Shown one piece after another: positions 7,957-26,282 of a stretch of DNA of 64,000 nt. Position 1 is the stretch's first letter. Every line of letters begins with the position of its first letter. The DNA lies in IMG/VR virus record IMGVR_UViG_2562617114_000001, positions 13,082 through 77,081 of that record; one strand, given 5' to 3'. This DNA is from a virus (Duplodnaviria > Caudoviricetes). The notes under the pieces are model-generated. The model had not been told where the DNA came from and searched no databases. It worked only from the letters and a program-made list of their open reading frames with translations. Position numbers and translations under genes: made by a program.

Positions 7957-7957
7957 A

Positions 7958-11020: not shown

Positions 11021-11370
11021 GCTGGTCTCCGTTGATGCCATAGGCGGCGGGGGGGAATTGCTAAGATGTTAAGGCCTGGGGTTGAAAACCCATCCCTGGT
11101 CCATACCTCCTTGTGGCGCCAACAGAGACGAAATGATGTATCGTGGAACTTAGCCAGGTAAACCCAAGCCCCAGACAGGCGGCGGTAGTGGGGATCGACA
11201 GGTGGCTCCGGCCAGCCGAAGCCGGGCGGTGGTGGAAGTAGAAAGTGATTTACCGAACTCTCTGGGAGGCTCCGGAGACGGGGCCGCTTTAACTTATGGC
11301 CGTTTAAGTTGCGCTAGGTCGAAAATAATACTTGCAATTGGGAGTGCCTTTTCATTTCATCTCGCAATAA

Positions 11371-11961
11371 TTGCCAATGAAGAGAAGCAGAATGGAATCC
11401 CCGATCGCTTTGCCAAGCTTTGAGCAGCAGCTTGACGCCATGTTCGGCTGTTGCGATCCCGCCGGACGAACCATCGAAGACCCTGAACGCCACTTTAGCC
11501 CACAAAGTCTCCAGCGCCTGGACGAGGATACTGCGCCACTCATTAGACGCTATATGGAATTGGCATGTGATGGGTTGAGGCTTCCTGGTGTGTTGCACCG
11601 GACGCATCCTATGCTTTGGCTGATCGACAAACCAGGTGATGTCTGGACTGCAATAGAGGAGGTCATTGATGCGGAAACGGGTGCATACCTGTATCCTCTT
11701 TCTCGCAGCCAAAGTTCAAAGCCCGGGCATGTGCGCCTCGGACATCCGTCTTTAGTAATTGCCCGCAACAAGCATGCTCGGATCGGCGGAGAGATTAAGT
11801 ATTCCGCTGCTGCAAATAAGTGGATCATATCAAATCGGTCCGGGAGGTATGGCACCCGCCCAAATCAAACGCAGGCTCATTTGGCTGCTGCAGCCAGTAG
11901 GTTTATGGAATTCGATATCGAACTCACCGTAAGCTTTTGGCAGCCAGGAAACTCACAATGA
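11371..11961 (+). CDS. Hypothetical protein, putative toxin/effector (HPSL...GGEI...SNRSGRY)
   Basis: Visibly AT-richer gene, antisense to the early operon; start uncertain (11371/11377/11392). Confidence 0.65.
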   Translation: MPMKRSRMESPIALPSFEQQLDAMFGCCDPAGRTIEDPERHFSPQSLQRLDEDTAPLIRRYMELACDGLRLPGVLHRTHPMLWLIDKPGDVWTAIEEVIDAETGAYLYPLSRSQSSKPGHVRLGHPSLVIARNKHARIGGEIKYSAAANKWIISNRSGRYGTRPNQTQAHLAAAASRFMEFDIELTVSFWQPGNSQ

Positions 11962-12665
11962 TAATATTTTGGGATTTTGAACCATCCGAAATGCCTGCGC
12001 TTCAGGAAGTGATTACCTCGTCTGAAGGACTCAAAACTTTTATCTCTTCATTGAAGCATTTTCTGGCTGTGACCCCTCTCGATGGCGGAGCAGGAGAAGA
12101 CCTGATCTATACTACTGGGACAATGCTTACGAACGCTAACATTTGGTCGCGCCTACCGGCGGAGGATTTGGCCAACGCTTTAGCAGGCGAAGTCCCCATC
12201 GCTGCTGTAAAGTTGATCTTAGAACACGCATCGAGCGAATATCGACGCGCGGTGATCAGCGCGATGGAATCCACCACTCTATTGACTGAGTATAAGGAAA
12301 TCTTAGATCGTGTGGAGGTCAACGAGCGATACAGTGCTCCCGAAGAATTTAAATTCCGGGGAAGTACACGCTTACCCGATCTTTCGCTCACGATGAGAAG
12401 TTATAAACCAAACTCGTTACTTTTACGGTTTCACCATAAATTGCCTGAATCTAACTTGCGTTCTAACTTCGGTATTCACTTCCGTGCGTTAGGGCTTGAA
12501 AGCTCGGTTGCTATCTCGCTCGGTTTAGGAGTGACATGGGGCGTAACAATTAGACCAAATGCTGTGATAATGCATATCAATGGAAAGTATTTCGTTGAGA
12601 TCGATGAAAGCGTCCTGCGGAAAGTAAGTAGCCAAAAAAAGGCGCCGATTTTCAGTCGGGATTGA
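11958..12665 (+). CDS. Hypothetical protein, translationally coupled partner of 11371-11961
   Basis: ATGA overlap at 11958-11961; AT-rich; no recognised family. Confidence 0.7.
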   Translation: MIIFWDFEPSEMPALQEVITSSEGLKTFISSLKHFLAVTPLDGGAGEDLIYTTGTMLTNANIWSRLPAEDLANALAGEVPIAAVKLILEHASSEYRRAVISAMESTTLLTEYKEILDRVEVNERYSAPEEFKFRGSTRLPDLSLTMRSYKPNSLLLRFHHKLPESNLRSNFGIHFRALGLESSVAISLGLGVTWGVTIRPNAVIMHINGKYFVEIDESVLRKVSSQKKAPIFSRD

Positions 12666-12704
12666 TAGCTTTTACAGGTAAAGCTGCAGCAGTGCGGCAC
12701 GAGA

Positions 12705-12950
12705 ATGACGTGGGCCGTTAGCATCCGAAATAACTCCTCTGGTGGTGAAGGCCCGATAAGAGATGACGAAGGGGTTAACCTCCCTGACCAAGAAGCTGTT
12801 CGGAGAGAGGTGGCGATGATTGTGACTGGTCTTGCGCGAGATGAAATCCGGATGCAGCAGGCGGCCAATATCGTAGTCAACGTTCGAGATGAGGCCGACG
12901 CCAAGGTGTTCGTCGGCCAGTTGCAATACTCGGGTCGCTGGCAGGGGTAA
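12705..12950 (+). CDS. DUF6894-like small protein
   Basis: DDEGVNLPDQEAVRREV...VNVRDEADAKVF pattern. Confidence 0.6.
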   Translation: MTWAVSIRNNSSGGEGPIRDDEGVNLPDQEAVRREVAMIVTGLARDEIRMQQAANIVVNVRDEADAKVFVGQLQYSGRWQG

Positions 12951-12985
12951 TCCTCTTTCCGCAAATGCGCCCGTACCGTGCCCGG

Positions 12986-14146
12986 TCAAACCCGCATCGG
13001 CATCATGACGTAGGTGACGTCGTCATCCGCGCCGTCCTTGACGATAGCCGGGTCACCCGGGCCGCCGAGCTCGAGCATTGCGCCACCGTCCAGCTGCGCC
13101 AGGATCTCGAGCAGGTAACCGGCGTTGAAGCCGATCTCGAGTGTGACGTCGTGATCGACGGTGATTTCGGTTGATGCGTGGCCGAAGTCCGGGTCGTAAC
13201 AGGTGATGGCGATCTCGCCCGGTGCCAGGGTCAGCTTTGACGATCGGCTCTTCTCGGCCGAGATGGACGAGGCCTGCTTGAGCGCGTCGATGAAGGCTGC
13301 CGTCCGGACCGGAACCTTGTGCTGGTTCTGCGTCGGGATGACCCGCAGGTAGTTCGGGAACGTGCCGTCGACGACCTTTGACTCGAGCAGCTCATCCTCG
13401 CCGATGAGGAATGACACGCCGCTGTCGGTCACCGAGACCATGATATCGATCGGGCAATCCTTCCGCTTCAAGAGGCGCAGCAGCTCGCCAACCGTCTTCC
13501 GCGGGATTATCATGCCGTTCTCGATCGCTTCCGCACCAGCCGGCGCCGGGATCTCAAAGCGAGCCAGGCGGTGACCGTCGGTCGCAACAAACGCCAGCCG
13601 GTTGTCGTGGGCGAGGTGCATGAAGACGCCGTTGAGGTAGTAGCGCGTCTCCTCTGTTGAGATAGCGAGCTGGATCTTCGACATGGCCTTCAGCAGTGTG
13701 GCCGCCGGCACCATGAAGCTGACGTTCGACTTGCCGAGAGCGGTGCGGAACGCAGCGTCTTCCGGAAAGTCCGACCGCTCGTGCTCCTGCTTCAGGGTGA
13801 GCTTCAACTTGCCGATCGACACGGCCAGGCTATCACCGTCCAGGGTGAAGTTGATGTTGGCTGCGTCCTTCACCTTGTCCATGATGCCCTTCAGCTTGTG
13901 GGCATCAACGATCGCGAGGAAGTCGCTGTCGGCCTTACCGGCGACCAGCGTCGTGCTGTAGACGTCCATGTCCGTGCCGATGACGTTCACGCCCTTGCGG
14001 TTGGAGGTGATGAGCACTGTGTTCAGGACAGGGATGGTGTTCTTCTTCTCGACCACCTTGCAGGCATTGACCATGGCCTTTTTGAAAACCGAATAGTCAA
14101 GGGACGCCGTGGAAACAGAGGCGGCGATGTTGGCAAGTGCGTTCAT
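12986..14146 (-). CDS. dnaN: DNA polymerase III beta sliding clamp (phage copy)
   Basis: KKNTIPVLNTVLI, GTDMD, AISTEETRYYLNGV, VATDGHRLA, VDGTFPNY, IGFNAGYL, YVMMPMRV. Confidence 0.92.
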   Translation of the reverse strand: MNALANIAASVSTASLDYSVFKKAMVNACKVVEKKNTIPVLNTVLITSNRKGVNVIGTDMDVYSTTLVAGKADSDFLAIVDAHKLKGIMDKVKDAANINFTLDGDSLAVSIGKLKLTLKQEHERSDFPEDAAFRTALGKSNVSFMVPAATLLKAMSKIQLAISTEETRYYLNGVFMHLAHDNRLAFVATDGHRLARFEIPAPAGAEAIENGMIIPRKTVGELLRLLKRKDCPIDIMVSVTDSGVSFLIGEDELLESKVVDGTFPNYLRVIPTQNQHKVPVRTAAFIDALKQASSISAEKSRSSKLTLAPGEIAITCYDPDFGHASTEITVDHDVTLEIGFNAGYLLEILAQLDGGAMLELGGPGDPAIVKDGADDDVTYVMMPMRV

Positions 14147-14164
14147 GGGTAGTCTCCGTGGTTC

Positions 14165-14175
14165 GCATGATTGCG
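14165..14175 (-). repeat. Early-operon pre-RBS mini-hairpin motif (CGCAATCATGC), representative copy
   Basis: Exact copies at 14165, 15167, 21241, 24950, 25273; variants at 11037, 16304, 17724, 20499, 22309, 24187, 25981; degenerate copy at 18398. Confidence 0.8.
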
Positions 14176-14193
14176 GGGTGGTTGCCGGTTAAC

Positions 14194-14418
14194 CTACCGG
14201 CGGAGGATAGAGTAGGCGGTGGTTTCGGCCACAGCCCGGGGGTCGATGCGATCGGGCTCGATGGTGAGCCCGTCGGTAGCGTGCAGGGGATAGGAGTTGT
14301 GCGCCGTGAACCGCCTGCTTGCGGGGTCGAACGATATATACAGGGCTCCTGGCTTGATTCCGGGGCGAATGATGAGGCGGCCATCTCGCCGGACGTTCCA
14401 GTAGTCGAGGTCGATCAT
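14194..14418 (-). CDS. Paralogue P9 of the unknown early small-protein family
   Basis: LYISFDPASRRF core and C-terminal IDPRAVAETTAYSIL. Confidence 0.7.
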   Translation of the reverse strand: MIDLDYWNVRRDGRLIIRPGIKPGALYISFDPASRRFTAHNSYPLHATDGLTIEPDRIDPRAVAETTAYSILRR

Positions 14419-15152
14419 CCAAGGTATCCGGTGCGCGGGATCAGGTCGTACTTCTTGCCGATCTCATAGGTGATTTCGGTCGGCGTCTGCCCGGCTTCCA
14501 TTGCAGCGGTGATGCGCTCCGGGTGGTCGGACACGAGGTCACCGTATCCCCATTGGCGCTCGGCTTCGGCCCGGCAAGCTGTGATGTATTCTTCCGGCGT
14601 CATCTTCTTGCGCTGGAAGTCTCGGTTGCTCGGGTCCGTCGTGCTCCCCTTGTCGGCGGCCACCATGGAGACGAAGATGGTGTGGATGTCAGGGTGGTAA
14701 GGCTCGCGGTTGTACTGGTTGTCTTCGGTGAGGAGCTTCCAGTCTAGCCGGCGAAGGACTTCCGGCACGAACTCCCAATCGTAGGCGTTCACGAACTCGT
14801 AGCCTTGCGACTCCGTGTGGGTATGCACCCGGAGCGCAATGTCGCCGGCTTGCACGGAGCAGTGGCGCATGGCGGACGAGCCGAGCCCTTCGAAGTAGTC
14901 CTTCAGCAGATCGTGGTCTCGGTTCTCGCACAACCATTCCCAGGCGCAGAGGGCGGCTTCCATCTGCAGGTGGGTGTAGGCGTCAGCATCGCTGAACCTC
15001 GCCTTCGGATCATCCTTCACGCTGGCGAAGACCTCGATGCCGTTGGCGTCCTTACGGGGCTGCTTCTTGATGAAGACGCTCCACGATGTGGTGTCGCCGG
15101 CCAGGCTATCAATGTCAGCAGCGTGGGCATAGCCGATACGTTTGATGGGCAT
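14415..15152 (-). CDS. Hypothetical acidic protein
   Basis: Hairpin motif + AAGGAAGAG SD before ATG 15152. Confidence 0.75.
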   Translation of the reverse strand: MPIKRIGYAHAADIDSLAGDTTSWSVFIKKQPRKDANGIEVFASVKDDPKARFSDADAYTHLQMEAALCAWEWLCENRDHDLLKDYFEGLGSSAMRHCSVQAGDIALRVHTHTESQGYEFVNAYDWEFVPEVLRRLDWKLLTEDNQYNREPYHPDIHTIFVSMVAADKGSTTDPSNRDFQRKKMTPEEYITACRAEAERQWGYGDLVSDHPERITAAMEAGQTPTEITYEIGKKYDLIPRTGYLG

Positions 15153-15183
15153 GGTCTCTTCCTTTCGCATGATTGCGGTGTGG

Positions 15184-15468
15184 TCAGGTGGCAACGCCGA
15201 GCGAGGCGGCGGTGCAGTTAGCGATAATGTGTGGCGGGATGATCGAGATCAGATACTCTCGAAGCTTGTCAGGCACATCGATGGTGCCGACGCCGTCAGC
15301 GCTTAGCCTTGTGCAGGTGCCGAAGACTCTTTGCTCGACCATGTAGATTGCATACCAGCGAGGGGCGCGACCATTGCTGAAGTCGATATAGATTCTGTCT
15401 TTCGTGCTGAATGAGGCCGCGATGTAGATCTCGGTGATGCGGTGCCGGATGCGGGCCGGGTCAACCAT
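15184..15468 (-). CDS. Paralogue P8 of the unknown early small-protein family
   Basis: WYAIYMVEQRVF core; C-terminal KLREYLISIIPPHIIANCTAASL; ATG abuts the upstream TAG. Confidence 0.7.
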   Translation of the reverse strand: MVDPARIRHRITEIYIAASFSTKDRIYIDFSNGRAPRWYAIYMVEQRVFGTCTRLSADGVGTIDVPDKLREYLISIIPPHIIANCTAASLGVAT

Positions 15469-15654
15469 CTATTTCGGCACCCGGATCTTCGCCACGCTGT
15501 AGGGCTCGGCCGCCATGGGGTTAAGGCGACCGTCTCCGTAGATGGTGTGGTCTTGGAGGTGGTTGCGGACCGCATAGACCGCCTGCTTCTTGGACAGCAG
15601 GGCATCGAACCGCACCCGGATTGTGATTTCGTGAGTCGTGCTCTTCATGGTCAT
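15469..15654 (-). CDS. Small hypothetical protein
   Basis: AGGAGG SD; ATGA overlap with the upstream gene. Confidence 0.6.
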   Translation of the reverse strand: MTMKSTTHEITIRVRFDALLSKKQAVYAVRNHLQDHTIYGDGRLNPMAAEPYSVAKIRVPK

Positions 15655-16286
15655 GCCTCCTTGGTGCAGAAGGCCTTGGCCCGGTCGATCAGCTTCGCCA
15701 ACTCTGCGGAGTGGTGCGTCTCGTTCTTGATCTCGGCGAGGGCAGCCAGTTCTTTCACCAGATGGCAGGCCTCCCAGCTGAAGGGCTCGCCGTCCTTGCG
15801 CATGTCCATCTCCACGCCATCGCCGCCCCACTTGTCGTCGTCGTTGGGGTCGTCCTCGTCCGGGCCATAGACGATCATAGTTTGGTCGCCTTCGATGGCG
15901 TCATCGATCGAGTAGTTGAAGTCGTCGTGCCTCAAGGTCGTTGCCTTCGCGACGGCCTCGTCGAAGCTTGTTGCCTGCACTTCGGTGTCGCACTCACCGC
16001 GGAAGGTGGCGAACAGGCGGACGCCGTAGGTGCGGAGCACGGGCTCGTCGTCTTCGCCGTCGCTGTCCTCGTTCGCCTCGATCTCCGCCATGTTGATCGC
16101 GCTCTGCATCACGTTCCGTGCAGTGTCGGCATCGAGTTGGCAGCGGAGGCGAAGGAAGTGGAAGACGTTGGTGACCAGGTCTTTCGCCTTCGTCTGGTCG
16201 TCCTCGCCGTGCATGGGGTGGGACAGGGTGAAGGCGTCGATAGCCAGAGCTGCGTAGGATGCGCGGTCTGCATTGTCTGGTGTCAT
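15651..16286 (-). CDS. Hypothetical, highly acidic protein
   Basis: Hairpin motif + AAGGAG SD before ATG 16286; D/E-rich tracts. Confidence 0.75.
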   Translation of the reverse strand: MTPDNADRASYAALAIDAFTLSHPMHGEDDQTKAKDLVTNVFHFLRLRCQLDADTARNVMQSAINMAEIEANEDSDGEDDEPVLRTYGVRLFATFRGECDTEVQATSFDEAVAKATTLRHDDFNYSIDDAIEGDQTMIVYGPDEDDPNDDDKWGGDGVEMDMRKDGEPFSWEACHLVKELAALAEIKNETHHSAELAKLIDRAKAFCTKEA

Positions 16287-16354
16287 GGGGGTTCTCCTTT
16301 GTTGCCATAGCTGGCGGGGTGGACTCCGTCCGCATCCGGTCCCATAATCCCGGC

Positions 16355-16558
16355 ATGCCAGACATTGACTGGAATAAAGCGCCAAAGGCGGCGCGGTGGT
16401 GGGCGATGGACAAGGATGGCGAGGCACACTGGTTCTGCGCCCCGGATGTCGCTGCGTTCACAGACTTCTGGTTCAGCGAGCCTATGCTGGCACCGAAATT
16501 CGGCTACGATGGCGATTGGCGGCAAAGCCTAGTTGAGAGGCCAGCCGTCAAAAGCTGA
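16355..16558 (+). CDS. Small Trp-rich hypothetical protein, antisense to the early operon
   Basis: MPDIDWNKAPKAARWWAMDKDGEAHWF...WRQSLVERP; fills the gap between VWA gene and next gene. Confidence 0.6.
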   Translation: MPDIDWNKAPKAARWWAMDKDGEAHWFCAPDVAAFTDFWFSEPMLAPKFGYDGDWRQSLVERPAVKS

Positions 16559-17714
16559 TGCTGATCGGCTCACCGAACGGCAGATCCGCCGTCAGCTCGT
16601 CGAACCTACGCGGGTCACCGTAGACTCCCCACAGGACCGGGATTTCCGGATCGTTGCCGAAGTCGTAGACCTCGAGGTCGGTCAGGTAGATGATGAACCG
16701 CGCTTCCGGGAACCGCTCCATGATAACGTTGAAGGAGTCGCGGAAAGCGGTACCGCCCCCGCCGACCGGCCGGAGCACCAGCTCGTCGCCGTTCTCGAAC
16801 TCCTCGATCGCCTGCACCTTGGCGTCGGCATAGATCACGGTCAGCTTGTCGATCGCGCCTTCCATGTATGCGCCGTTGATCTCCGCCGCGAAGTCCTTGC
16901 AAGGCTTGTCGTCGAAGACGGAGCCGGAGGAATCCTGCACGATGATGCCATGGCTGACGCCGTCGCTGATCGTGCCGGGGGTGACGAAGCCGAGCGGCAA
17001 CATGCGCCGGTTCGGTTTCGACCAGCTGAAATCCCGAGTCATGCTCTCGTCGATGAAGCGGCGGAGCATCGCGCGCCAGTCGACCTTGGGCCGGAGCAGC
17101 TCTTCCACGAGCTTGGCGATGTTGGCGGGTAGTTTGCCAGCCTGCGCTCCCTTGGCGGCCATGGCGGCCTGCTGGATCTGCACGTTCATCTCCGCCTCGA
17201 GCTCGGCAATGGTCGACTGGTCATGTGGGGCGCAGCCGTCGAGGACACCGCCGCAACCGCCGCCGTCCATGCTGTTCTCGTCGGAGTCGTCGCCGTTGTT
17301 CTCGTCGTCGAGGATACGGTAGATTTCCTCCGCGGACAGGCCGGTGAAGCGCGGCTCGAGCAGCCCGCACTCCGGCATCTTGCCCACCTTGCACTCGACC
17401 AGCTCGCCGTTGATGGCGTAGTCGGCCGCCTTGTTCCACCGGCCGGGCTTGCGGTGCTGCCGGCGGGTGTGATGCTTCAGCGCATTGTGCATGACCTCGT
17501 GGGCCAGGACGAACACCAGCTCGTCCTTCTTCAGGCTCATGACGAACGGCGTGTGGTAGTAGAGGTGGCGGCCGTCGGTTGCCATCGTGTCGATGCGCGG
17601 GTCATCGGTCGCATCGATCTTCTTCAGCTGCAGCATGAGCACACCGAAGAATGGGTGGTCCCACAGCAGGCCGGTCTGCGCGGCGAGGATCTTGTCTTGG
17701 ACGTTCATGGTCAT
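16548..17714 (-). CDS. DUF2201-type metallopeptidase + VWA domain protein
   Basis: TMATDG and LAHEVMH (HExxH); C-terminal VQDSSGS MIDAS, GGGGTAF and YLTDL. Confidence 0.88.
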   Translation of the reverse strand: MTMNVQDKILAAQTGLLWDHPFFGVLMLQLKKIDATDDPRIDTMATDGRHLYYHTPFVMSLKKDELVFVLAHEVMHNALKHHTRRQHRKPGRWNKAADYAINGELVECKVGKMPECGLLEPRFTGLSAEEIYRILDDENNGDDSDENSMDGGGCGGVLDGCAPHDQSTIAELEAEMNVQIQQAAMAAKGAQAGKLPANIAKLVEELLRPKVDWRAMLRRFIDESMTRDFSWSKPNRRMLPLGFVTPGTISDGVSHGIIVQDSSGSVFDDKPCKDFAAEINGAYMEGAIDKLTVIYADAKVQAIEEFENGDELVLRPVGGGGTAFRDSFNVIMERFPEARFIIYLTDLEVYDFGNDPEIPVLWGVYGDPRRFDELTADLPFGEPISISF

Positions 17715-18387: not shown

Positions 18388-18389
18388 TG

Positions 18390-20481: not shown

Positions 20482-20861
20482 TGGTCGTCTCCTTGTTTGC
20501 CATATTCGGCTGGGTCGATGGGAAGGCCGATCCTCAAGCGGGTGAGGTCGGCAATGTCGGTGCCGCGCACCATGGAGAAAGCGGCATCGGCAAGCTTGTC
20601 GCGCGGGAAGCGCGGGTAGGACAGTTGCGGGAAGGGTGAGAGGTCTTCCGGCAGGCGGTAGTCGTGGAAGTTGGCGCCATACTTCGGCGCTTTGGCTCCC
20701 CAATGATCACGGGCTCGCATCTTGAACGTCTTGTCGCGTGGCCCGATCAGCGCCTCGTATCGAAGCGTCTTTCCTTCGTCGGAGCGGAAGGCGAACCAGA
20801 ACTTGAGCCGTCCGAAAACTACCTGCCGGGCGTAGGGTCCGATCAGGAGTCCGGTGGGCAT
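20457..20861 (-). CDS. Paralogue P2
   Basis: IGPY...FWFAFRSDEGKTLRYEALIGPRDKTF...KLADAAFSMVRGTDIADLTRLRI. Confidence 0.7.
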   Translation of the reverse strand: MPTGLLIGPYARQVVFGRLKFWFAFRSDEGKTLRYEALIGPRDKTFKMRARDHWGAKAPKYGANFHDYRLPEDLSPFPQLSYPRFPRDKLADAAFSMVRGTDIADLTRLRIGLPIDPAEYGKQGDDQCTLKLLP

Positions 20862-20862
20862 G

Positions 20863-21225
20863 TCACTTCCAAATGATCTCATCCGGAAACAGGATGGCCG
20901 GGCCGCATATGGGCGGCAGCTCCTCCGGGTCCATCGCCGGGCGCTGGGTCATCATGTTGTTGCGGTAGATTTCGGTCGCCCTAACGTTGCGGATGTGGCG
21001 GCCGTTGATGTTGCTGGTCTCTCCGACGAACATGTCGCGGCGTTCGCCCTCGTAGAGCACGGCAACATGCTCGACGGGTTCATCGAATGCGTCGGGCAGA
21101 AGCCGCTTGATCCAAGTCGAGATTGGCTCCCTTGTGAAGCGTGGCTCCATGCGGATTTCTTTTGCTTCGCCGAGCGCCGGGATGAGCAAAGCCCGGGCAA
21201 ACGTTCCTGTTCTGAGGCCGGTCAA
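20863..21225 (-). CDS. Hypothetical protein (DUF3846-like pattern)
   Basis: DMFVGE...RNVRATEIY...ICGPAIL; hairpin motif + AAGGAG + TTG start. Confidence 0.6.
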   Translation of the reverse strand: MTGLRTGTFARALLIPALGEAKEIRMEPRFTREPISTWIKRLLPDAFDEPVEHVAVLYEGERRDMFVGETSNINGRHIRNVRATEIYRNNMMTQRPAMDPEELPPICGPAILFPDEIIWK

Positions 21226-21253
21226 TGGGCTCTCCTTTGTGCATGATTGCGAG

Positions 21254-21284
21254 AAAAAGGGACGCTGGCTCCGGCCAACGTCCC
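21254..21284 (-). terminator. Intrinsic terminator
   Basis: Minus strand GGGACG-TTGGC-CGGA-GCCA-GCGTCCC followed by TTTTT. Confidence 0.7.
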
Positions 21285-21393
21285 CACGTGTTGCGGCGGG
21301 TTACTCGATTACTTCATGACCGCCTCCTCTGGCTGTTGACGTTCGGGGTGAACCTGCCTTTACGGTCTCCACACCTACCGGGCAGGGATGGGA

Positions 21394-22290
21394 TCAGGCG
21401 AGGAAGTCGGACACGCTGTCCAAGATGCGCTGCGCCTCGGCCGCGGTGTCCTTGCGGACGTTCGCGTCTTCCTTCAGGGCCGCGGCATCGTACTTCGTGA
21501 GCGCCTTCAGACGCTCGCCAAGGGCGTCCAGCTCGGGCGACCCGACGATGTTGAGCGACGGCATGACGCTCACCAGATCCGCGATGTTCTCGACGAGGCT
21601 GGAGCGGAAGCCGCCGGTGCGCTCGCCGGGGGTGAAGCTGTTGAGGCGGTCCACCATGCGCTCTGTCAGGGTGGCAACGCGCTGGTAGACGTCGCGGACC
21701 GCGTTCTCGGTCGCCTTCTGCAGCTGCTCCTCGATATCGGCGCGGATGAGGGCGGCGTGTGCCTCGCTCATGTCGACGCGGAAGTCCGTCGAGGTCGGCA
21801 CGGGCAGGACCGAATAGACGATGCCGAACTTCTCCCGGATCTCGTTGCTGGTCGGGTAGTCGGTCGCCTTGAACAGCTTGCCCATGCGCTTTTGCGCGTC
21901 GGTGACGTGCTGGTCGAAGTCGTTCACCAGCTTATCCACCTCGCGCTGGAACTTGGCGGACTGGACGCGCATCCACGCGGTGAAGGGGAGATAGCCGTCG
22001 GCGCTGATGATGCGGCCGCCGTCATTGAGCCACGGCAGGGTGCGCTCATAGAAGCCGTTGCGGGTTTCGCTGACGAGCGTTTGAATGCCGGCGAGCGCTT
22101 CCTTGCTCACCAGCAGCTTGTTGACGCGGGAGGCGTCGGATGCTGCGTTGTGGGAGTCGTTGAGCTCCTGCGTCACCTGCCGATCAAGCCGGCGGCCGGA
22201 CCACTGCGAAATCGTCACGCTGACGATCATCGCACGGCTGGCGAGGGTGGAGGTGGAGGCAGAGAGGGTAGCTGGGGTCATGGAATTCAC
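21394..22290 (-). CDS. DUF3150-like protein
   Basis: VSVTISQWSGRRLDR...KLL...TLPW...LFKATDYP...FRVD...FRSSLVEN...SLNI; GTG at 22290 after AAGGAG. Confidence 0.75.
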   Translation of the reverse strand: MNSMTPATLSASTSTLASRAMIVSVTISQWSGRRLDRQVTQELNDSHNAASDASRVNKLLVSKEALAGIQTLVSETRNGFYERTLPWLNDGGRIISADGYLPFTAWMRVQSAKFQREVDKLVNDFDQHVTDAQKRMGKLFKATDYPTSNEIREKFGIVYSVLPVPTSTDFRVDMSEAHAALIRADIEEQLQKATENAVRDVYQRVATLTERMVDRLNSFTPGERTGGFRSSLVENIADLVSVMPSLNIVGSPELDALGERLKALTKYDAAALKEDANVRKDTAAEAQRILDSVSDFLA

Positions 22291-22361
22291 GTTCAGTCTC
22301 CTTTGGTTGCCATGAGTGGCGGGGGCGGTGGAATCTACACGCGGGATTGCGTGGACAGAAG

Positions 22362-22649
22362 TCAGGCCGCGAGTGATGCGGCCAAGCACCGCGCTCTCTC
22401 TTCCGGCGGGATCATCGACAGGAATAGCTCGGCAAGCTTACGCGGGCGCGGCAGGCGCTTTGTGGTGCCGAACCCGTTGTGGATTTTAACTCCAGCCCGG
22501 AAGCGCCGGGAATCCGTCTGGAAAACGAGGTGATACTGGCGGCGGGGTTTGCCACAATCAAACCTGTAGACGATGCCTTGGCCTTCCAGATCCGGCGTTG
22601 TCAGGCGGCCGACATAGCGGAACACGGGGCGGATGCTATCGGCGTTCAT
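22362..22649 (-). CDS. Paralogue P1
   Basis: YRFDCGKPRRQYHLVFQTDSRRF...KLAELFLSMIPPEERARCLAASL; ATGA overlap. Confidence 0.75.
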   Translation of the reverse strand: MNADSIRPVFRYVGRLTTPDLEGQGIVYRFDCGKPRRQYHLVFQTDSRRFRAGVKIHNGFGTTKRLPRPRKLAELFLSMIPPEERARCLAASLAA

Positions 22650-23458
22650 CCGACCGTGTTCCCGTCTTCGTCGAAGGTGAAGTCGGCAAGCGCCTCGTCC
22701 ACCGCCTCGTCGGACGTAAGGTACTCGTGCTCCGCCTCCAGCTGGCGATAGATCCAGTCCATGAACGAGCGGAGGCATGCGGCGACCTCCTCCACGAAAG
22801 GGCCGTAAATGAGCCCATATCGACCACATAGCGCGTTCCAGGTCATCACCTGCAATTGGTTGTCTTCGTCCAGCGAGTCAGGCGTGGGCAAGTCTGCGTC
22901 GATCGACACCGAATAGGCGTGGCAATAGCTGGAGGTGCCTTTCTCGATGGTCACCGTTGCGTCCGGGATGAGCGCGTTGCACCGTTCCGATATGTCGGCC
23001 AGGGAGAACGCAATCTCATGCAAGCGCTCATCCGTCGGGGCGTGGCGTATGACGGCGGAGAGGGAGGCGAGCGGATTGCTCACCGGGCGCCAATCGCCAG
23101 TAAAGCACGCGCCATCGCCTTGGCTGGAGAAGCCCGTGAAATAGATTGCGGGCGAGGTGACCGTCTCGCCGTTTTGCAGGCGTTCGCGCTTGTCGTCGAT
23201 CTCAATGCCCATCACACCGGCGATCAAGATGGCGTCGTCATAGATCGAGTCCCACCAGTCGTAATGCAGGCCCTCGGCGCGGTAGTCGTCGCGGGCTCGT
23301 TCTTTCGCGCGGGGTGACAGCTCCTTAAACGAAAACTCCGCCTTGTCGGCGGAGTCGTCGTCCTCAAAGTCGGTTGCGGGCTGGTTGACGTAAATGGGTG
23401 CACCTTCAGCTATTGCGCGGTTGACGGCGCGGGTAAGGGCGGCACGAGCGGCGTTCAT
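22646..23458 (-). CDS. Acidic conserved mobile-element protein (IYFxGFxSQGDGACF family)
   Basis: FKELSPRAKERAR...WWDSIYDD...IYFTGFSSQGDGACF...WIYRQLEAEHEYLTSDEAVDE. Confidence 0.75.
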   Translation of the reverse strand: MNAARAALTRAVNRAIAEGAPIYVNQPATDFEDDDSADKAEFSFKELSPRAKERARDDYRAEGLHYDWWDSIYDDAILIAGVMGIEIDDKRERLQNGETVTSPAIYFTGFSSQGDGACFTGDWRPVSNPLASLSAVIRHAPTDERLHEIAFSLADISERCNALIPDATVTIEKGTSSYCHAYSVSIDADLPTPDSLDEDNQLQVMTWNALCGRYGLIYGPFVEEVAACLRSFMDWIYRQLEAEHEYLTSDEAVDEALADFTFDEDGNTVG

Positions 23459-23466
23459 GGGAAGCC

Positions 23467-23790
23467 TCACAGGCTTATGCGGATCGACACAGAAAAGCCC
23501 GCCGGTGCGATTTGCACGGGCGGGCGGTGGATCGGCGCGGGTTTCGGTTTAGGCGCGCGGTATGCGGCCTTGACGGGTTTCGGGCGCGGCAACGGGACCG
23601 GGCCAGCGATAGGCAATTCTGCGAACGACTCCACCAGTGTTGGAGCTGGCGGAGCGGGAATGGGTGCCAGCGCAACAGGGGCGGGCGCTGGTGCGGGTGC
23701 GGGCTTGCTGTTGGAGATTATGCCGGTGGCGCCTTGGAAAAGCACGAGGGCGACCGTCGCAAGCGTGGGGAAGCCGCCAGCGTGACTCAT
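23467..23790 (-). CDS. Pro/Ala-rich protein with hydrophobic N-terminus
   Basis: ATGA overlap; TLATVALVLF followed by PAPAPAPAP and PLPRPKP. Confidence 0.5.
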   Translation of the reverse strand: MSHAGGFPTLATVALVLFQGATGIISNSKPAPAPAPAPVALAPIPAPPAPTLVESFAELPIAGPVPLPRPKPVKAAYRAPKPKPAPIHRPPVQIAPAGFSVSIRISL

Positions 23791-24020
23791 GCGGCGGTTC
23801 GCTCGCGAGAGGGCAGGAAGAGTTCCCACGCTTCCCGGGTGGAAAGATAGCGCTCATAGGCAGCCCGGAGCGGCGTGCCTGGCTCACCATGGGCGCGGGG
23901 CGTATAGCGGACGTCGCCAGCCCATTCTCGCGGGAAGGTGCGGCGGATCTCGTCCATCCATTCCTCATCGGCGGCAAGGTGAGCGGCGTATGCGGCGGCC
24001 ATGGGGGGCAGTTCAGGCAT
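23787..24020 (-). CDS. Small hypothetical protein
   Basis: AAGGAG SD; coupled to neighbouring genes. Confidence 0.65.
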   Translation of the reverse strand: MPELPPMAAAYAAHLAADEEWMDEIRRTFPREWAGDVRYTPRAHGEPGTPLRAAYERYLSTREAWELFLPSRERTAA

Positions 24021-24171
24021 AGCGGGTCTCCTTCCGAGCCTCGCGGAGAATGCGGCAGATTTCCTCTTTCACCTCTGCATTGGTGGGCTCGCGGCCCAGG
24101 CGGGCGCTAAGGCGGTTCAAGATCGTGTTCTGGTTGTCATTCCGGAACGTGATGTTGATAGCGATCGGCAT
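24013..24171 (-). CDS. 52-aa protein absent from the ORF track (MPIAINITFRNDNQNTILNRLSARLGREPTNAEVKEEICRILREARKETRYA)
   Basis: Manual translation; hairpin motif at 24187 and GAGGG SD; stop overlaps the next start. Confidence 0.65.
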   Translation of the reverse strand: MPIAINITFRNDNQNTILNRLSARLGREPTNAEVKEEICRILREARKETRYA

Positions 24172-24335
24172 GAGATATCCCTCTGTGCATAATTGCGGGG
24201 TGTCGCGCGGCGCTGATATCGCGGGCAGGCAGCGGCGCGCATAGTCCTGCCGGTGGAATGAGAGCGGGCTTTAACGGTTCCCGCGCATGGGGTGCCTCCG
24301 TGGTGCGGTTGATCGGCGGGCGGTGGATGACGTGC

Positions 24336-24357
24336 AAAAACCCACCTATGGAGGCGG
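24336..24357 (-). terminator. Intrinsic terminator
   Basis: CCGCCT-CCAT-AGGTGG-G-TTTTT on the minus strand. Confidence 0.5.
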
Positions 24358-24429
24358 ATCTTCAGGTTCGGGCAGCAACGGCGCGGCCAAGGTGGCAGCC
24401 AGAGTGAACAAGAATGCGCGGCGGTTCAT
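24346..24429 (-). CDS. 27-aa peptide resembling an isolated Tat signal (MNRRAFLFTLAATLAAPLLPEPEDPPP)
   Basis: Manual translation; ATGA overlap with the upstream stop at 24426. Confidence 0.4.
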   Translation of the reverse strand: MNRRAFLFTLAATLAAPLLPEPEDPPP

Positions 24430-24593
24430 GTGGGCTTGATCGCGTCCAGATATTCCACCCAGCGAAGGGCAAGCACCCAGCAGGCGAGAATAAGCGCGAT
24501 GGAAAGCGCCGTTACCACTGTGACCGTGTCCGGCTTGGGCGAGTCTGGCAGTCGAATGAGCGGGCGGACGGAATCGCGACCTTTATCATTCAT
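24426..24593 (-). CDS. Small single-pass membrane protein
   Basis: ATGA overlap; TVVTALSIALILACWVLAL hydrophobic helix. Confidence 0.55.
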   Translation of the reverse strand: MNDKGRDSVRPLIRLPDSPKPDTVTVVTALSIALILACWVLALRWVEYLDAIKPT

Positions 24594-24769
24594 GACACAG
24601 GCTCCAAGGCAGCCAAGTCCCGTGCGGCGGCGATGGCGTCGGAGCGTTCCCTGTAGGTGTCGATAGGTCGGGCGAGACCGCGGCCGATCTTGACCGCCAG
24701 AACCCAAAGGGTGCCGTCTCGGCGGTGCTTGGGGAGGACGACGTAGCGGGAAGGGCTTAGCGTTTTCAT
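24590..24769 (-). CDS. 59-aa hypothetical protein (MKTLSPSRYVVLPKHRRDG...)
   Basis: Manual translation; GGAG SD; ATGA overlaps at both ends. Confidence 0.55.
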   Translation of the reverse strand: MKTLSPSRYVVLPKHRRDGTLWVLAVKIGRGLARPIDTYRERSDAIAAARDLAALEPVS

Positions 24770-24930
24770 GCGGCGATCTCCGGAAGGCGGAGACGAGTGC
24801 CGTCAACCGAAAGCCAAACGGGATTGCGCCGGGACGCGGGACGGATGTTGAGAAGGCCGAAAGCGATACAAAGGCGGCCTATCCGCACGAGGCGGACTCG
24901 GCCCACCTTGCGGGTGGACACGTTGAACAT
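24766..24930 (-). CDS. 54-aa basic hypothetical protein (MFNVSTRKVGRVRLVRIG...)
   Basis: Manual translation; hairpin motif at 24950 and GGAG SD. Confidence 0.55.
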   Translation of the reverse strand: MFNVSTRKVGRVRLVRIGRLCIAFGLLNIRPASRRNPVWLSVDGTRLRLPEIAA

Positions 24931-24969
24931 GCGGGAATCTCCATAGGTCGCATGATTGCGGGGGGAACG

Positions 24970-24994
24970 AAAAAAGCCGCCCGGAGGCGGCTTT
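24970..24994 (-). terminator. Intrinsic terminator
   Basis: GCCGCC-TCCG-GGCGGC-TTTTTT. Confidence 0.8.
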
Positions 24995-25018
24995 AGTTGT
25001 CGTAGAGGGGGAGAGCTT

Positions 25019-25255
25019 TTAGTTCAGCTTTGTCAGCACCGCGAGGGCGCTGACGGCCACGAAAAGCATGCTGCCAAGGCGGACGGTGAGCCGGAGCGTC
25101 ACCGCGTCCAATGCAGCGGTCAGGTCTGACTTTGTTACGAGTTCTGCCATGATGAAATCCCGTGCGGCTTCGGCGTGGGCCTCGGCGAGTTTCTGCTCTA
25201 CGCCTACGTCACGGAGGCGTTTCGCGTAACCCAGTGTATCAAAGGCAATTGCCAA
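25019..25255 (-). CDS. DUF1640/CCDC90-like coiled-coil membrane protein
   Basis: FDTLGYAKRLRDVGV...AEAHAEA...LVTKSDL...LTVRLGSM plus C-terminal TM segment. Confidence 0.75.
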   Translation of the reverse strand: MAIAFDTLGYAKRLRDVGVEQKLAEAHAEAARDFIMAELVTKSDLTAALDAVTLRLTVRLGSMLFVAVSALAVLTKLN

Positions 25256-25302
25256 TTCAAATCTCCTTCATTGCATGATTGCGAGTTCGGCATGTCGCCG
25301 CG

Positions 25303-25364
25303 AAAAGGCGCACCACGGCGCCCTTGCGTAGGGACATGGAAAAGGGGAGGCTAATGCCTCCCCC
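25303..25364 (-). terminator. Two tandem intrinsic terminator-like hairpins
   Basis: GGGGAGGC-ATTA-GCCTCCCC-TTTT (25340-25364) and GGCGC-CGTGGT-GCGCC-TTTT (25303-25322). Confidence 0.6.
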
Positions 25365-25392
25365 CATCGATTACGGACCAACCGCGTATCTG

Positions 25393-25968
25393 TCAGGCGG
25401 CAATGTCCATTTCCGCCTGCTCCGGTGCGGCCGCCGGTGCCGCCTTGACGGCCTTCGCCTTGGCAGGCTTTTCCGCCTTGACCGGAGCGACGACGACATT
25501 CGGAGTCTTCGCCAGCGTCAAAGCTCCCTTGACCGCCTGCAGAATGCGAGGAGACGCGCCCTTTTCGGTCAGGGTTGAGACCACCTTTTCCAGATAGGCG
25601 ACTTCATCGAATTCCTTTTCGGACTTCGCCTTGCCTGCCGAGCGTTCATAGTTGGCAGGTGCGATTTCCATCGCCTCATCCATCTTCGAAGCCTTCCCCT
25701 TGACGTAGGTGAAGACACTGGTTGCCTTGTCAAACGAGACCTTGCCGAAAGCCGTTGACCACGAAACGAGACCCTTGCGGTAGTTGACCGGAGTCACCGC
25801 GTAAAGCGCGTTGAGGTATTTCGGATCGTTGTGCAATTCGACATGGTTCAATGCCGAATATGCAAGCTGGTGCTCGCGCTCCGAAAAGGTGGAAACCACC
25901 TTGCCGAAACCGTTGATTGCCGAATTGAGCTTGGAACCAGTGAGAACAACGAACTTAGCCATAACCAT
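25393..25968 (-). CDS. Early hypothetical phage protein
   Basis: HQLAYSALNHVELHND...RKGLVSWSTAFG; Lys/Ala-rich tail; hairpin variant and GGAG SD. Confidence 0.8.
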   Translation of the reverse strand: MVMAKFVVLTGSKLNSAINGFGKVVSTFSEREHQLAYSALNHVELHNDPKYLNALYAVTPVNYRKGLVSWSTAFGKVSFDKATSVFTYVKGKASKMDEAMEIAPANYERSAGKAKSEKEFDEVAYLEKVVSTLTEKGASPRILQAVKGALTLAKTPNVVVAPVKAEKPAKAKAVKAAPAAAPEQAEMDIAA

Positions 25969-26051
25969 TTCTCCATTTGTGCCATGATTGGCGGGTTTGA
26001 AGCGATTGCTTCACTAAAGGCATGCTCGGAGACATGCCCTTAAAGCTGCAA

Positions 26052-26228
26052 TCACAAGGCCATTGCGGCCTCGTCTTTCCGGCGTTCGATTTCTTTCCGG
26101 TGAGACCGTGCCGTTTGTTCCGCCGTGATCGATCCGGCAAGGTTGCCGTTTCGAAGGTGGGAAGCCGCACGACGTTCCATGTAAGCCGCAAGGTTTTCCA
26201 ACGCCTGAATTGCCCGTAGTTCTTCCAT
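26052..26228 (-). CDS. Small hypothetical protein, probable first early ORF
   Basis: MEELRAIQALENLAAYMERRAASH...; helical; weak SD. Confidence 0.45.
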   Translation of the reverse strand: MEELRAIQALENLAAYMERRAASHLRNGNLAGSITAEQTARSHRKEIERRKDEAAMAL

Positions 26229-26282
26229 CTCGTTCGCCCTTCCACTGAAAGAGCAAGGCCGTTCGCCTTGCCGTCGCAATGG

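Follow-up and report, generated by a model that had tools for sequence, protein, structure and literature searches.

A covarying hairpin 5′ of ribosome-binding sites in a prophage family appears to be an undescribed control signal and a marker of cassette-swap sites

What is the role of a small hairpin that recurs in a single prophage just 5′ of about 15 ribosome-binding sites, each belonging to a non-structural gene? The question is raised by a 64,000-nt stretch of DNA, hereafter the window, from a 77-kb prophage in the 7.05-Mb genome of a root-nodule-type bacterium. As set out below, the evidence suggests a previously undescribed control signal whose copies would also mark sites of cassette swapping.

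A hairpin at a fixed place before translation starts

The motif is a 12-nt palindrome that forms a 3-4 bp stem and a tetraloop; a CCC flank precedes it, and an A-rich spacer, then a GGAG-type Shine-Dalgarno sequence (SD) and a start codon, come after it. The motif-rich operon (Table 1) is a separate leftward unit diverging from the terminase operon, and its conserved core comprises the 191-aa protein, the 298-aa protein, AAA+, DUF2201/VWA, DnaN-like, DUF4942-methyltransferase and HTH proteins. The prophage also contains a CI-type repressor gene (110-880), a 30-kb structural operon (28-58 kb) and a left arm encoding RecT and a PDDEXK exonuclease. The first-pass annotation, made from the letters of the window alone, had listed 12 minus-strand hairpins by coordinates that correspond to the low (3′) ends of 10-12 nt hairpins. 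All 12 were recovered, each followed by the A-rich spacer, SD and start codon and by an ORF of 52-546 aa, and the NNYA loops, the two copies with G-U pairs (at 11037 and 20499) and the two copies after intrinsic terminators were as it had described. It had further confined the motif to this operon, for which the label "early" is an assumption. This was nearly right: the covariance model found none in the structural operon, but one plus-strand copy precedes a 61-aa ORF (2130-2315, phrog_8618) at a position conserved in relatives, and two copies lie left of the window in a leftward recombination block (C8:242144-242169 and 238481-238506).

Table 1. Motif copies and associated features of the window, with scores of covariance model R1
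Feature	Position	Strand	R1 (bits)	Remarks
Leftward accessory operon	8915..26400	-		17 kb; 12 of 15 motif copies; variable small cassettes between core genes
CCC + GCCA-AUCA-UGGC (copy 1)	25977..26002	-	32.3	Before 191-aa first conserved gene (25968-25393)
CUC + GCA-AUCA-UGC	25268..25293	-	17.0	78-aa ORF downstream
Intrinsic terminator within operon	24973..24994	-		9-bp stem and T-run; motif copy immediately 3′
CGCA-AUCA-UGCG	24945..24970	-	25.4	Adjoins terminator 24973-24994; 54-aa ORF downstream
GCA-AUUA-UGC	24182..24207	-	24.2	52-aa ORF downstream
GCCA-CUCA-UGGC	22305..22330	-	27.0	298-aa conserved gene downstream; L001 blastn block starts at 22324
Intrinsic terminator within operon	21258..21285	-		12-bp stem and T-run; motif copy immediately 3′
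GCA-AUCA-UGC	21236..21261	-	20.1	Adjoins terminator 21258-21285; 120-aa ORF downstream
GCCG-AAUA-UGGC	20495..20520	-	18.6	G-U closing pair; MoxR-type AAA+ gene downstream (Pfam AAA_5)
GCA-ACCA-UGC	17719..17744	-	24.9	DUF2201 metallopeptidase/VWA gene downstream; L001 homology restart
GCCA-GCUA-UGGC	16300..16325	-	24.9	211-aa ORF downstream; cassette absent from L001
CGCA-AUCA-UGCG	15162..15187	-	23.3	7 nt past upstream stop codon; 245-aa ORF downstream; cassette absent from L001
CGCA-AUCA-UGCG	14160..14185	-	26.8	Phage DnaN-like clamp gene downstream (Pfam DNA_pol3_beta); L001 homology restart
GCCG-CCUA-UGGC	11033..11058	-	20.6	G-U closing pair; DUF4942-methyltransferase gene downstream; L001 homology restart
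149-aa HTH protein, MqsA/HigA/Aca type	8918..9364	-		Last operon gene; candidate motif reader
GGCA-ACAA-UGCC (extra copy)	2090..2115	+	23.9	Rightward replication operon

The bare hairpin pattern occurred 20 times in the window, compared with 6.2 ± 2.5 times in second-order Markov simulations. When the flank and SD were also required, the convincing matches in the 7.05-Mb genome were 11 of the window copies and one elsewhere on the same contig; matches were restricted to the prophage, and no host gene carried the motif. With model R1 the 12 copies scored 17-32 bits, and the runner-up in the window after these, the plus-strand copy and one false positive scored 11.4 bits; no further real copy was found in the minus-strand operon. 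The false positive, at 19853-19878, is located within the AAA gene. The promoter and leader region of the operon (26.3-28.2 kb) yielded no copy. An equal frequency before late genes had been named in the first-pass annotation as evidence against its reading; in the late operons of this prophage and three relatives no motif matches were found. Across 148 copies, an ORF lies downstream in 138, most hairpins end 4-7 nt 5′ of the SD, the distance to the start codon is 11-24 nt (mode 16-18), and the SD is extended, near-consensus and AAAGGAG-like. Many copies lie 2-19 nt past an upstream stop codon or directly after terminators.

Stem pairing was assessed in copies selected by a YCC flank, the invariant core and an SD, with variable stem positions ignored; 127 such copies were on the operon strand and 12 were antisense. 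The inner variable pair was complementary in 121 of the 127 (GC 58, CG 55, UA 8), that is, 95% compared with ~43% expected with independent sides, and the outer variable pair was GC in 61, CG in 23, UA in 13 and C.A in 22. The same covariation was obtained with seed alignment A1 and with 96 independent copies (A3); none of 500 shuffles reached it, and slid partners paired in 10-50%. At the closing pair, AU (124 vs 5) and GU (22 vs 8) were enriched over the control strand, whereas A.C (15 vs 14) and G-C (21 vs 18) were not, which fits pairing in the sense strand, with the G-U asymmetry depending on ~14 excess copies. A hairpin in single-stranded DNA would equally predict the covariation. The CCC flank, the loop (ANYA/G, most commonly AUCA) and the two top pairs (C-G, A-U/G-U) are nearly invariant. 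The predicted free energy averages -2.5 kcal/mol and folding is predicted in 74% of 72-nt contexts; a 3-4 bp hairpin without a partner may fail to fold in vivo. By comparison of these sequences, the motif is a real structured element whose pairing is selected, and the RNA structure that had been proposed from compensatory changes in the window gains support from stem covariation across other genera (more than 200 copies).

Distribution among relatives and cassette boundaries

A scan of 151 genomes found motif clusters only in carriers of the element (11-13 matches vs 0-5). Copy numbers of 5-18 were found in each of at least 14 genomic elements and over 10 IMG/VR contigs, with nearly all copies on the operon strand (95 of 96 matches in genomic loci). 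In IMG/VR loci, matches fall on a single strand per locus, except for a conserved copy in a convergent operon; in L121-L131, opposite-strand matches lie ~6.3 kb beyond the HTH gene. Relatives with the hairpin span at least a dozen genera, including Ensifer, Brucella, Pseudochrobactrum, Ancylobacter, Peteryoungia, Aurantimonas, Hoeflea and Devosia, and all hosts of motif-bearing elements belong to one order, Hyphomicrobiales. As judged from this distribution, the motif is a specific feature of the prophage family; it has no Rfam family, and no published description of it was found. The fourth loop base is G in 7 of 8 copies of the Aurantimonas element and in 4 of 5 copies at IMG/VR locus L130, and A in most copies of every other element. 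Only two motif-free relatives were available, a short MAG contig (G178) and a Roseibium element whose TerL is 65% identical and which has most operon core genes yet no motif; its junctions consist of a terminator and an SD.

No two elements have the same genes between the conserved ones. When close relatives are aligned, homology resumes 0-8 nt 5′ of the hairpin, and 15 of 50 block starts fall within -12 to +3 nt of it compared with 1.1% expected, a positive outcome of the check on gene-content breakpoints proposed in the first-pass annotation. Some indels between two Brucella elements are flanked by the motif on either side, and left-hand block boundaries are mostly at stop codons rather than at the motif. 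Such comparison shows the 15 direct repeats to be joints for cassette gain, loss and replacement, and the exchange agent is probably the phage's own RecT/exonuclease pair. The crossover point for cassette shuffling proposed earlier agrees with these breakpoints, and is a side effect in the explanation that we prefer.

Possible readers of the hairpin

We tentatively favor, at a little below an even chance, a transcribed RNA operator that gives post-transcriptional control of each cassette, perhaps read by the HTH protein, with the repeats doubling as recombination joints. Once transcribed, the motif would fold in mRNA as the standard 5′ end of the cassettes of non-structural operons; selection on its pairing and its fixed location in the translation-initiation region are shown by comparison. 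Since the loop, top pairs and CCC are near-invariant and the hairpin is weak, a factor probably reads it sequence-specifically instead of its acting as a passive clamp, and translation and/or mRNA fate would be set per cassette. The reader may be the 149-aa HTH protein, which would provide feedback through mRNA hairpins by analogy with Aca2 and Aca1 at anti-CRISPR 5′-UTR hairpins. Support declines from the structure through the sequence-specific reading to this candidate, and these data would also follow from a conserved host factor (ribosome, RNase or Hfq-like protein).

The HTH protein belongs to phrog_18342 ("transcriptional repressor"). A match to 3cec had an E value of 0.011. Its AF2 model (pLDDT 88) matched MqsA best in Foldseek, with NE0471, HigA2, Aca2 and Aca1 also among the top matches, all at weak E values (0.006-0.2). 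These model-based matches are weak and generic for XRE-type HTH domains, which normally bind DNA, and do not make the protein a recognisable Aca-family member. Among the genomic elements with the motif, all 13 that were checked have its gene; each of 11 IMG/VR loci retrieved through the gene has 2-8 R1 matches within 10 kb upstream, and it was not found in the motif-free Roseibium relative; G216 has a lone homologue and no motif. This co-occurrence largely reflects shared inheritance of one clade.

It is rather unlikely that the RNA element is passive or read by the host, without a phage protein dedicated to it, the hairpin shielding a standard ribosome-binding site from variable upstream sequence, marking a host RNase cut or protecting processed cistron 5′ ends from RNase E/J, with uniform strong translation of all cassettes as the outcome. 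The fixed distance from a near-consensus, extended SD, the copies shortly past stop codons or terminators and the predicted folding frequency agree with such an element, the Roseibium relative has a different hairpin, the intrinsic terminator, at the same pre-SD spot, and hosts from a single order make a common host factor possible. Pure structure, however, leaves unexplained the near-invariant CCC, C-G/A-U top pairs and ANYA loop, as well as a weak stem instead of stable GNRA/UNCG hairpins; the motif is absent from host genes, and a co-evolving reader better accounts for the loop A having changed to G in concert within one lineage. A DNA operator, at which the HTH protein would bind the duplex palindrome SSCA-N4-TGSS as a roadblock or repressor site repeated within operons, resembling the stoperators of Cluster A mycobacteriophages, appears distinctly improbable. 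The co-inherited protein is of XRE type and its best structural match is MqsA, the target of which is a palindrome of similarly short length; symmetry is seen in the invariant CA...TG core, and the sites are many, intergenic and uniformly oriented. A dimer on half-sites, however, needs no complementarity at non-contacted flanking positions, which are 95% and 79% paired; G-T is enriched and A-C is not, a roadblock gives the tight SD spacing no role, and the promoter region is without a copy.

We give a smaller chance still to the view that the repeats exist primarily for cassette exchange, through RecT short-homology annealing or a structure-specific enzyme that works on folded single-stranded DNA in the manner of integron attC sites, and that the link to ribosome-binding sites is a by-product of compact cassettes. 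The homology restarts at the motif, the doubly motif-bounded Brucella indels, the phage-encoded RecT and exonuclease and the variable gene content between core genes would all follow from it. Against it, the annotated proteins include neither an integron-type integrase nor an HUH enzyme, attC is five to ten times longer than this hairpin, left-hand boundaries are usually stop codons, and copy 17719-17744 lies inside a coding region, within the 3′ end of the upstream ORF; moreover, loop identity and SD spacing are kept over 50% protein divergence, and homology-driven exchange needs neither. Very improbable is a transcription signal, either a phage-specific promoter per cassette, which would account for the two copies immediately 3′ of strong terminators, or a hairpin-stabilised RNA polymerase pause coupling transcription to translation, for which the hairpin 3′ end lies at the usual hairpin-to-pause distance (~11-12 nt before the SD end). 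No sigma-70-like promoter at any copy and no conserved -35-like block 5′ of CCC were found, neither a phage RNA polymerase nor a sigma factor is among the annotated proteins, pause hairpins usually have at least 5 bp, and stem covariation is not expected of promoters, with N4-type systems as the exception.

Comparison with known systems

The earlier interpretation is partly supported overall, and the two analogues that it named are resemblances only. T7 early RNase III sites are likewise structured RNA between cistrons of a phage non-structural operon, and RNase III requires a duplex of roughly two helical turns; with a stem of only 3-4 bp, the motif therefore cannot be such a site. The MS2-type coat-protein operator has an ANYA tetraloop, most commonly AUCA or AUUA, on a short stem adjoining the translation start. 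The motif shares these traits but has no bulged adenine, and its SD and start codon lie outside the hairpin; a Levivirus coat homologue was not found in the genome. In T4-type phages, PeSL elements combine a sigma-70-type early promoter with a terminator stem-loop (PMC2839356, PMC4122927). Like the motif, they are repeated regulatory elements concentrated in variable non-essential gene regions and bound indels or replacements between close relatives, whereas the motif has neither a sigma-70 promoter nor a terminator stem-loop.

Closer analogues, by resemblance, are the Aca1/Aca2-bound 5′-UTR hairpins and the SAS/ESAS repeats of Cluster K mycobacteriophages. The HTH proteins Aca2 and Aca1 bind small, conserved 5′-UTR hairpins, and the Aca1 motif, whose upper part contains three covarying pairs, ends ~20 nt upstream of the start codon (PMC13551039). 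In those systems as in the present one, the gene for an HTH regulator lies downstream within the operon itself, which also carries accessory or counter-defence-type genes. Aca operons have one or two hairpins at the operon 5′ end, whereas here 12-15 stand before individual cassettes, and Aca proteins also bind a promoter inverted repeat in acr-aca operons, of which no copy was found here. The motif has no sequence similarity to SAS/ESAS (GGGATAGGAGCCC), whose hosts are Actinobacteria instead of Hyphomicrobiales; ESAS has 17 bp arms and a 4-13 bp spacer, with covariation not reported in the accessible part of the source, in contrast to the covarying 3-4 bp stem and fixed 4-nt loop of the motif. 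Both are conserved across related phages, and, like the motif, SAS/ESAS number 11-19 per genome, share a single orientation, accompany the translation starts of some genes only and are confined to the non-structural genome half, with the ESAS inverted repeat placed just 5′ of the SD-containing repeat.

Copies of the hairpin motif in the prophage

The window comprises most of a ~77-kb prophage integrated beside mnmA, whose features are collected in the table below. The twelve minus-strand hairpins listed in the first-pass annotation were all found, and every one displayed the same layout: a C-rich run (usually CCC), GCA-NNNA-TGC or GCCR-NNNA-TGGC, an A-rich spacer, a GGAG or GGGA Shine-Dalgarno (SD) site, and the start codon of an ORF of 52-546 aa. 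The bare hairpin pattern occurred 20 times in the window versus 6.2 +/- 2.5 times in second-order Markov simulations, and all twelve copies lay on one strand within 15 kb. When the flank and the SD were required, the 7.05-Mb genome contained 11 of these copies and one more on the same contig, the remaining matches being chance-like. With a covariance model trained on 54 copies (R1), the twelve copies scored 17-32 bits and the next window match 11.4 bits, after a further real copy and a false positive had been set aside. The proposed confinement to the early operon was borne out for 12 of 15 copies, which lie in the 17-kb leftward operon, but not for one plus-strand copy and two copies left of the window; moreover, "early" is an assumption here because this operon is not a repressor-controlled PL or PR unit. 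The motif might have been equally frequent before late genes, yet R1 detected no copy in the structural operon at 28-58 kb and none in the structural regions of three relatives. Curated Rfam covariance models gave 0 matches at E <= 1 in 8000-28500, and the open-access literature contained no paper with the motif sequence in a relevant context. These results demonstrate that the motif is real and specific to this prophage family, strand-specific, placed at a fixed position relative to the SD, and missing from late genes.

The repressor marks the immunity region of the prophage, the serine recombinase its left end and the RecT/PDDEXK pair its recombination module. The large serine recombinase adjoins host mnmA, and in left-arm coordinates the recombinase and the RecT + PDDEXK regions are L047:2692-4293 (-) and 10239-12678 (-). 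Variable small ORFs sit between the conserved genes of the 17-kb operon, and Pfam and PHROGs searches with them were almost all uninformative. A long non-coding leader at 26290-26900 (-) separates the presumed promoter region from the first motif copy. At its end, near 26300, is a terminator-like hairpin with a T-run, and this hairpin and the terminators inside the operon suggest that read-through depends on antitermination. About 25% of motif-bearing genes (e.g. 11041, 14146, 23457) start with Met-Asn-(Ala/Leu/Val/Ile), unrelated families such as the methyltransferase and the clamp included, a count that orthology confounds. Just past the structural operon, 58583-62039 encodes a staphylococcal-nuclease homologue, an SRAP (SOS-response-associated peptidase) protein and an ATP-dependent DNA ligase.

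Features of the prophage, motif copies outside the leftward operon, and terminator junctions of the Roseibium sister prophage (window coordinates unless a contig or prophage is named)
Feature	Position	Strand	Remarks
Leftward block			large serine recombinase, RecD-like helicase, DnaQ-like exonuclease, RecT, PDDEXK exonuclease, SMC-like ATPase
CI/LexA-type repressor	110-880	-	HTH + S24 peptidase domains
Rightward replication operon	949-8943		primase, DnaB
17-kb leftward operon	~26400 to 8915		carries 12/15 copies
Conserved genes of 17-kb operon			191-aa (phrog_1448), 298-aa, MoxR-type AAA+ ATPase, DUF2201 metallopeptidase/VWA, DnaN-like clamp, DUF4942-methyltransferase, 149-aa protein (last gene)
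Non-coding leader	between 17-kb leftward operon and rightward structural operon
Rightward structural operon	28029-58494		TerL, portal, protease-capsid, sheath, tape measure
Extra real copy	2090-2115	+	R1; 5' of 61-aa ORF
False positive	inside AAA gene, window		R1
Copy left of window	C8:242144-242169		R1
Copy left of window	C8:238481-238506		R1; new paired stem UCCA/UGGA
Roseibium terminator junctions, examples	L022: 5600-5650, 7660-7700, 11690-11725, 13210-13250

Covariation and geometry of the hairpin

For the covariation analysis, a copy had to have YCC, the invariant C-R...U-G core and an SD further on, with any base allowed at the two variable stem positions; 127 sense-strand and 12 antisense-strand copies qualified. 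At the inner variable position, GC occurred in 58, CG in 55 and UA in 8 copies, and 6 were unpaired, that is, 95% paired versus ~43% expected if the two sides were independent, and the outer pair was 79% complementary (GC 61, CG 23, UA 13, C.A 22 among the 127 copies). Counts on the seed alignment and on the independent copies concurred. Stems were 3-4 bp long in all copies, and the fully paired 4-bp stems were of eight kinds (GCCA/UGGC, CGCA/UGCG, UGCA/UGCA, GGCA/UGCC, GUCA/UGAC, CUCA/UGAG, GCCG/UGGC, UCCA/UGGA). These counts show that the motif covaries as a hairpin. The loop is closed by A-U or G-U with the U fixed, and relative to the control G-U pairs were in excess (22 vs 8), whereas A.C (15 vs 14) and G-C (21 vs 18) were not, which favors pairing on the sense strand, in RNA or, less likely, in sense-strand DNA.

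The hairpin is weak (mean -2.5 kcal/mol), although it is still predicted to form in most 72-nt contexts. Its loop is A-N-Y-A, with G as the fourth base in 12% of copies; conservation of the 5' CCC is 80-97%, and in 75% of copies the base after the stem is A, giving a conserved block, CCC-SSCA-ANYA-UGSS-A, that ends 4-7 nt 5' of an ordinary GGAG in most of 148 copies. In the same set, the stem end precedes the start codon by 11-24 nt (mode 16-18), and a downstream ORF is present for 138 copies. Many copies start 2-19 nt past the preceding stop codon, and a few are located within the 3' end of the upstream ORF. Genes with an ATGA-type overlap to the preceding gene have no copy of their own, the one exception being the copy at 17719-17744 within the 3' end of an ORF that overlaps the DUF2201 start. 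Three candidate roles were rejected: as the start of a mini-ORF, the invariant RUG on the 3' side of the loop lacks both a preceding SD and a constant frame to the main start; CCC:SD pairing amounts to only 2 bp plus a mismatch with no supporting covariation by inspection; and, for an antisense partner, the complement CATGATTG is absent from the leader on the RNA strand.

Relatives, cassette joints and a candidate reader

No isolated phage or plasmid was found to share the operon: a megablast search of 50,697 phage records with it was negative, and tblastn of the first operon gene gave only weak phage matches and no plasmid matches. The TerL relatives Microcystis phage Mae-JY30, VP882 and phiHAP-1 were set aside because the operon is not common to them; Mae-JY30 had one chance-level R1 match. 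The DUF2201 gene was found in 4 of 400 genomes of the same GTDB family, and relatives were taken from Ensifer, Brucella pecoris, B. tritici, Pseudochrobactrum, Ancylobacter, Roseibium, Mesorhizobium, Peteryoungia, Aurantimonas, Phyllobacteriaceae, Hoeflea and Devosia (one genome per species), together with a 94% identical IMG/VR contig (L001). The covariance-model search of related phages that the first-pass annotation had proposed recovered motif clusters in them, with 95 of 96 R1 matches on the operon strand and zero matches in the Roseibium, Mesorhizobium LSJC280B00 and distant Desulfovibrionaceae loci. Among 151 genomes of the family, clusters occurred in three carriers only (11, 13 and 12 matches), the others having 0-5 scattered matches, and exact-pattern and protein-based scans of IMG/VR added over 10 viral contigs, 40-97 kb long and each bearing 2-11 copies. 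In Hoeflea (G146), C15:201000-268827 contains 12 copies of the motif as well as the complete accessory operon, but the flanking 60 kb yielded neither TerL nor structural homologues; the accessory operon may also ride on a different or defective element. Several cassette junctions of the Roseibium prophage contain canonical intrinsic terminators (6-7 bp GC stem + T-run) 8-10 nt 5' of the SD, and thus the layout of a hairpin followed by an RBS recurs there with a different hairpin.

Comparison with L001 showed that homology blocks restart at window 22324, 17739, 14178 and 11055, 4-7 nt before the hairpin, and finish at stop codons; the window has extra cassettes at 25316-24498 and 16558-14178. 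The first-pass annotation had proposed to check whether gene-content breakpoints among relatives map to the motif; across six element pairs, not all of them independent, 15 of 50 block starts fell within -12..+3 nt of a hairpin versus 1.1% expected. Between the two Brucella elements, some indels are bounded by the motif on both sides. Neighboring blocks differ in identity (74-97%), the pattern that mosaic exchange produces. These comparisons place the motif at cassette joints. The phage RecT/exonuclease pair could use such short repeats, and phage annealing proteins are linked to relaxed homologous recombination. Between the DnaN-like and methyltransferase cassettes, 11371-12665 (+) is low in GC (GC3 0.47-0.59) and has ORFs that run antisense to the operon, and L001 carries a different 3.5-kb insert at this site.

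The Roseibium prophage (TerL 65% identity, no motif) has nearly all conserved operon genes, and the sole one that tracks the motif is the last gene, 8918-9364, encoding a 149-aa HTH protein. This gene was present in 13 of 13 motif-bearing genomic elements and was not found in the Roseibium genome or in a motif-free MAG (G178); conversely, all 11 IMG/VR loci retrieved with it had R1 clusters upstream. Two exceptions were set aside as co-occurrence tests: G216 has a lone homologue that is surrounded by non-phage genes and lacks the motif, and in G077 a divergent homologue lies close to another hairpin, GCCC-GAUCUU-GGGC, present twice. In the latter genome, the two GCCC-GATCTT-GGGC copies (L113/L114) lie on contig C3 ~5 kb upstream of the homologue (C3:7424-7852), and both precede an A-rich spacer, an SD and a start codon; they may form a second motif/reader pair. 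The HTH protein combines a small beta-rich N-domain with a C-terminal XRE-type HTH (AF2 pLDDT 88). Its best fold matches, all with weak E-values, were MqsA, NE0471, HigA2, Aca2, Aca1 and controller proteins (Foldseek E 0.08-0.5 for Aca2/Aca1), and a profile search gave a HigA-like antidote (E 0.011). PHROGs labels the family of this protein as transcriptional repressor.

From these data we infer that the motif is an operator in the mRNA that is read sequence-specifically and serves post-transcriptional control, and we hypothesize that its reader is the co-inherited HTH protein. A duplex-DNA operator is a rival reading, against which stand the G-U excess and the failure to find a motif copy at the promoter/leader (26.0-28.2 kb). 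The motif could also be a transcription signal, since both terminators that had been said to precede copies directly are real. A further rival is an RNA element that is passive or read by the host. The fourth loop base is G (AUCG/AUUG loops) in 7 of 8 Aurantimonas copies and 4 of 5 copies of IMGVR_UViG_2910510430_000001 and A in most copies of every other element, and the HTH proteins of these two elements are among the most divergent (46-48% identity). This concerted A-to-G change agrees with a reader encoded by the element itself, or else with recombination that homogenises the copies; among the proteins inspected, no recognition-helix residue correlated cleanly with the switch. A primarily recombinational role is also a rival; the cassette joints speak for it and the fixed SD geometry against it.

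Should the HTH protein indeed be the reader, HTH regulators would bind RNA not just at one or two leader sites but throughout an operon, controlling it cassette by cassette. A bolder and rather doubtful reading is a "plug-and-play" system of standard CCC-hairpin-RBS adaptors, with more than 12 mRNA copies read by one HTH protein and cassettes shuffled by RecT. Every accessory, probably counter-defence, gene would be delivered behind such an adaptor, the small HTH protein from the operon end would throttle all cassettes individually after entry, and the same adaptor would supply RecT homology for shuffling cassettes between phages. Such a system would be a multi-site extension of the Aca2 RNA-binding mechanism, integron-like in function and made from an RNA operator. 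The motif marks variable gene cassettes in widespread Hyphomicrobiales prophages (Ensifer, Brucella/Ochrobactrum, Devosia and others) and explains the position of their mosaic joints. It is a clean test case, with covarying pairing, fixed SD geometry, a natural AUCG loop variant, a sister phage without the motif and just one co-inherited candidate for the reader.

Comparison with known systems

The first-pass annotation named T7 early RNase III sites and T4-type PeSL elements as analogues. T7-type RNase III sites are extended ~20-bp duplexes with an internal loop, and this analogy fails on the 3-4 bp stem of all copies. Stoperators of Cluster A mycobacteriophages are asymmetric duplex-DNA sites for the phage repressor in which internal pairing is not needed, whereas the two variable positions here are complementary in 95% and 79% of copies. 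Integron attC sites are imperfect inverted repeats of 57-141 nt with R/L boxes, used by the IntI tyrosine recombinase; the present element measures 12 nt, and the only recombinases found were the large serine recombinase and RecT. MS2-type coat operators have an ANYA loop and a bulged purine in the stem and are bound by a Levivirus-type coat protein. The motif shares the loop consensus but has no bulge, and Levivirus coat (PF01819) had no match in the genome; the Com zinc ribbon (PF10122) was likewise not found in the prophage. PeSLs combine a strong sigma-70-like early promoter with a transcription-terminating stem-loop (PMC2839356, PMC4122927). The PeSL analogy holds for indel/replacement boundaries, which lie at the repeats between close relatives, but not for the promoter or terminator: no copy has a promoter-like site or a conserved -35 block, the short stem has no U-tract, and separate terminators precede two copies only.

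The Cluster K SAS/ESAS is a 13-bp asymmetric repeat, GGGATAGGAGCCC, that contains the SD and lies a few nt from the start codon; repeated start-associated motifs of this type in phage non-structural genes have been known since 2011 and are still without a described mechanism. Like SAS/ESAS, the motif occurs in many copies, in one orientation, at non-structural genes only, and is conserved among relatives; unlike it, the motif is not a 13-bp SD-containing repeat, its conserved block lying 5' of the SD. On these features, membership in the RNase III-site, PeSL, SAS/ESAS, stoperator, attC and MS2-operator families was rejected. Aca2 and Aca1 are reported to be HTH proteins whose genes come last in acr-aca operons; Aca2 represses translation, and the Aca1 RNA motif, which includes three covarying pairs, stops ~20 nt short of the start codon (PMC13551039). 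The motif resembles the Aca RNA operator as a conserved covarying hairpin in the 5' UTR near the RBS, with an HTH regulator gene downstream in the same operon. By analogy, Aca2/Aca1 is the nearest mechanistic precedent, and in broad terms the motif is of one kind with SAS/ESAS and the Aca RNA motifs.
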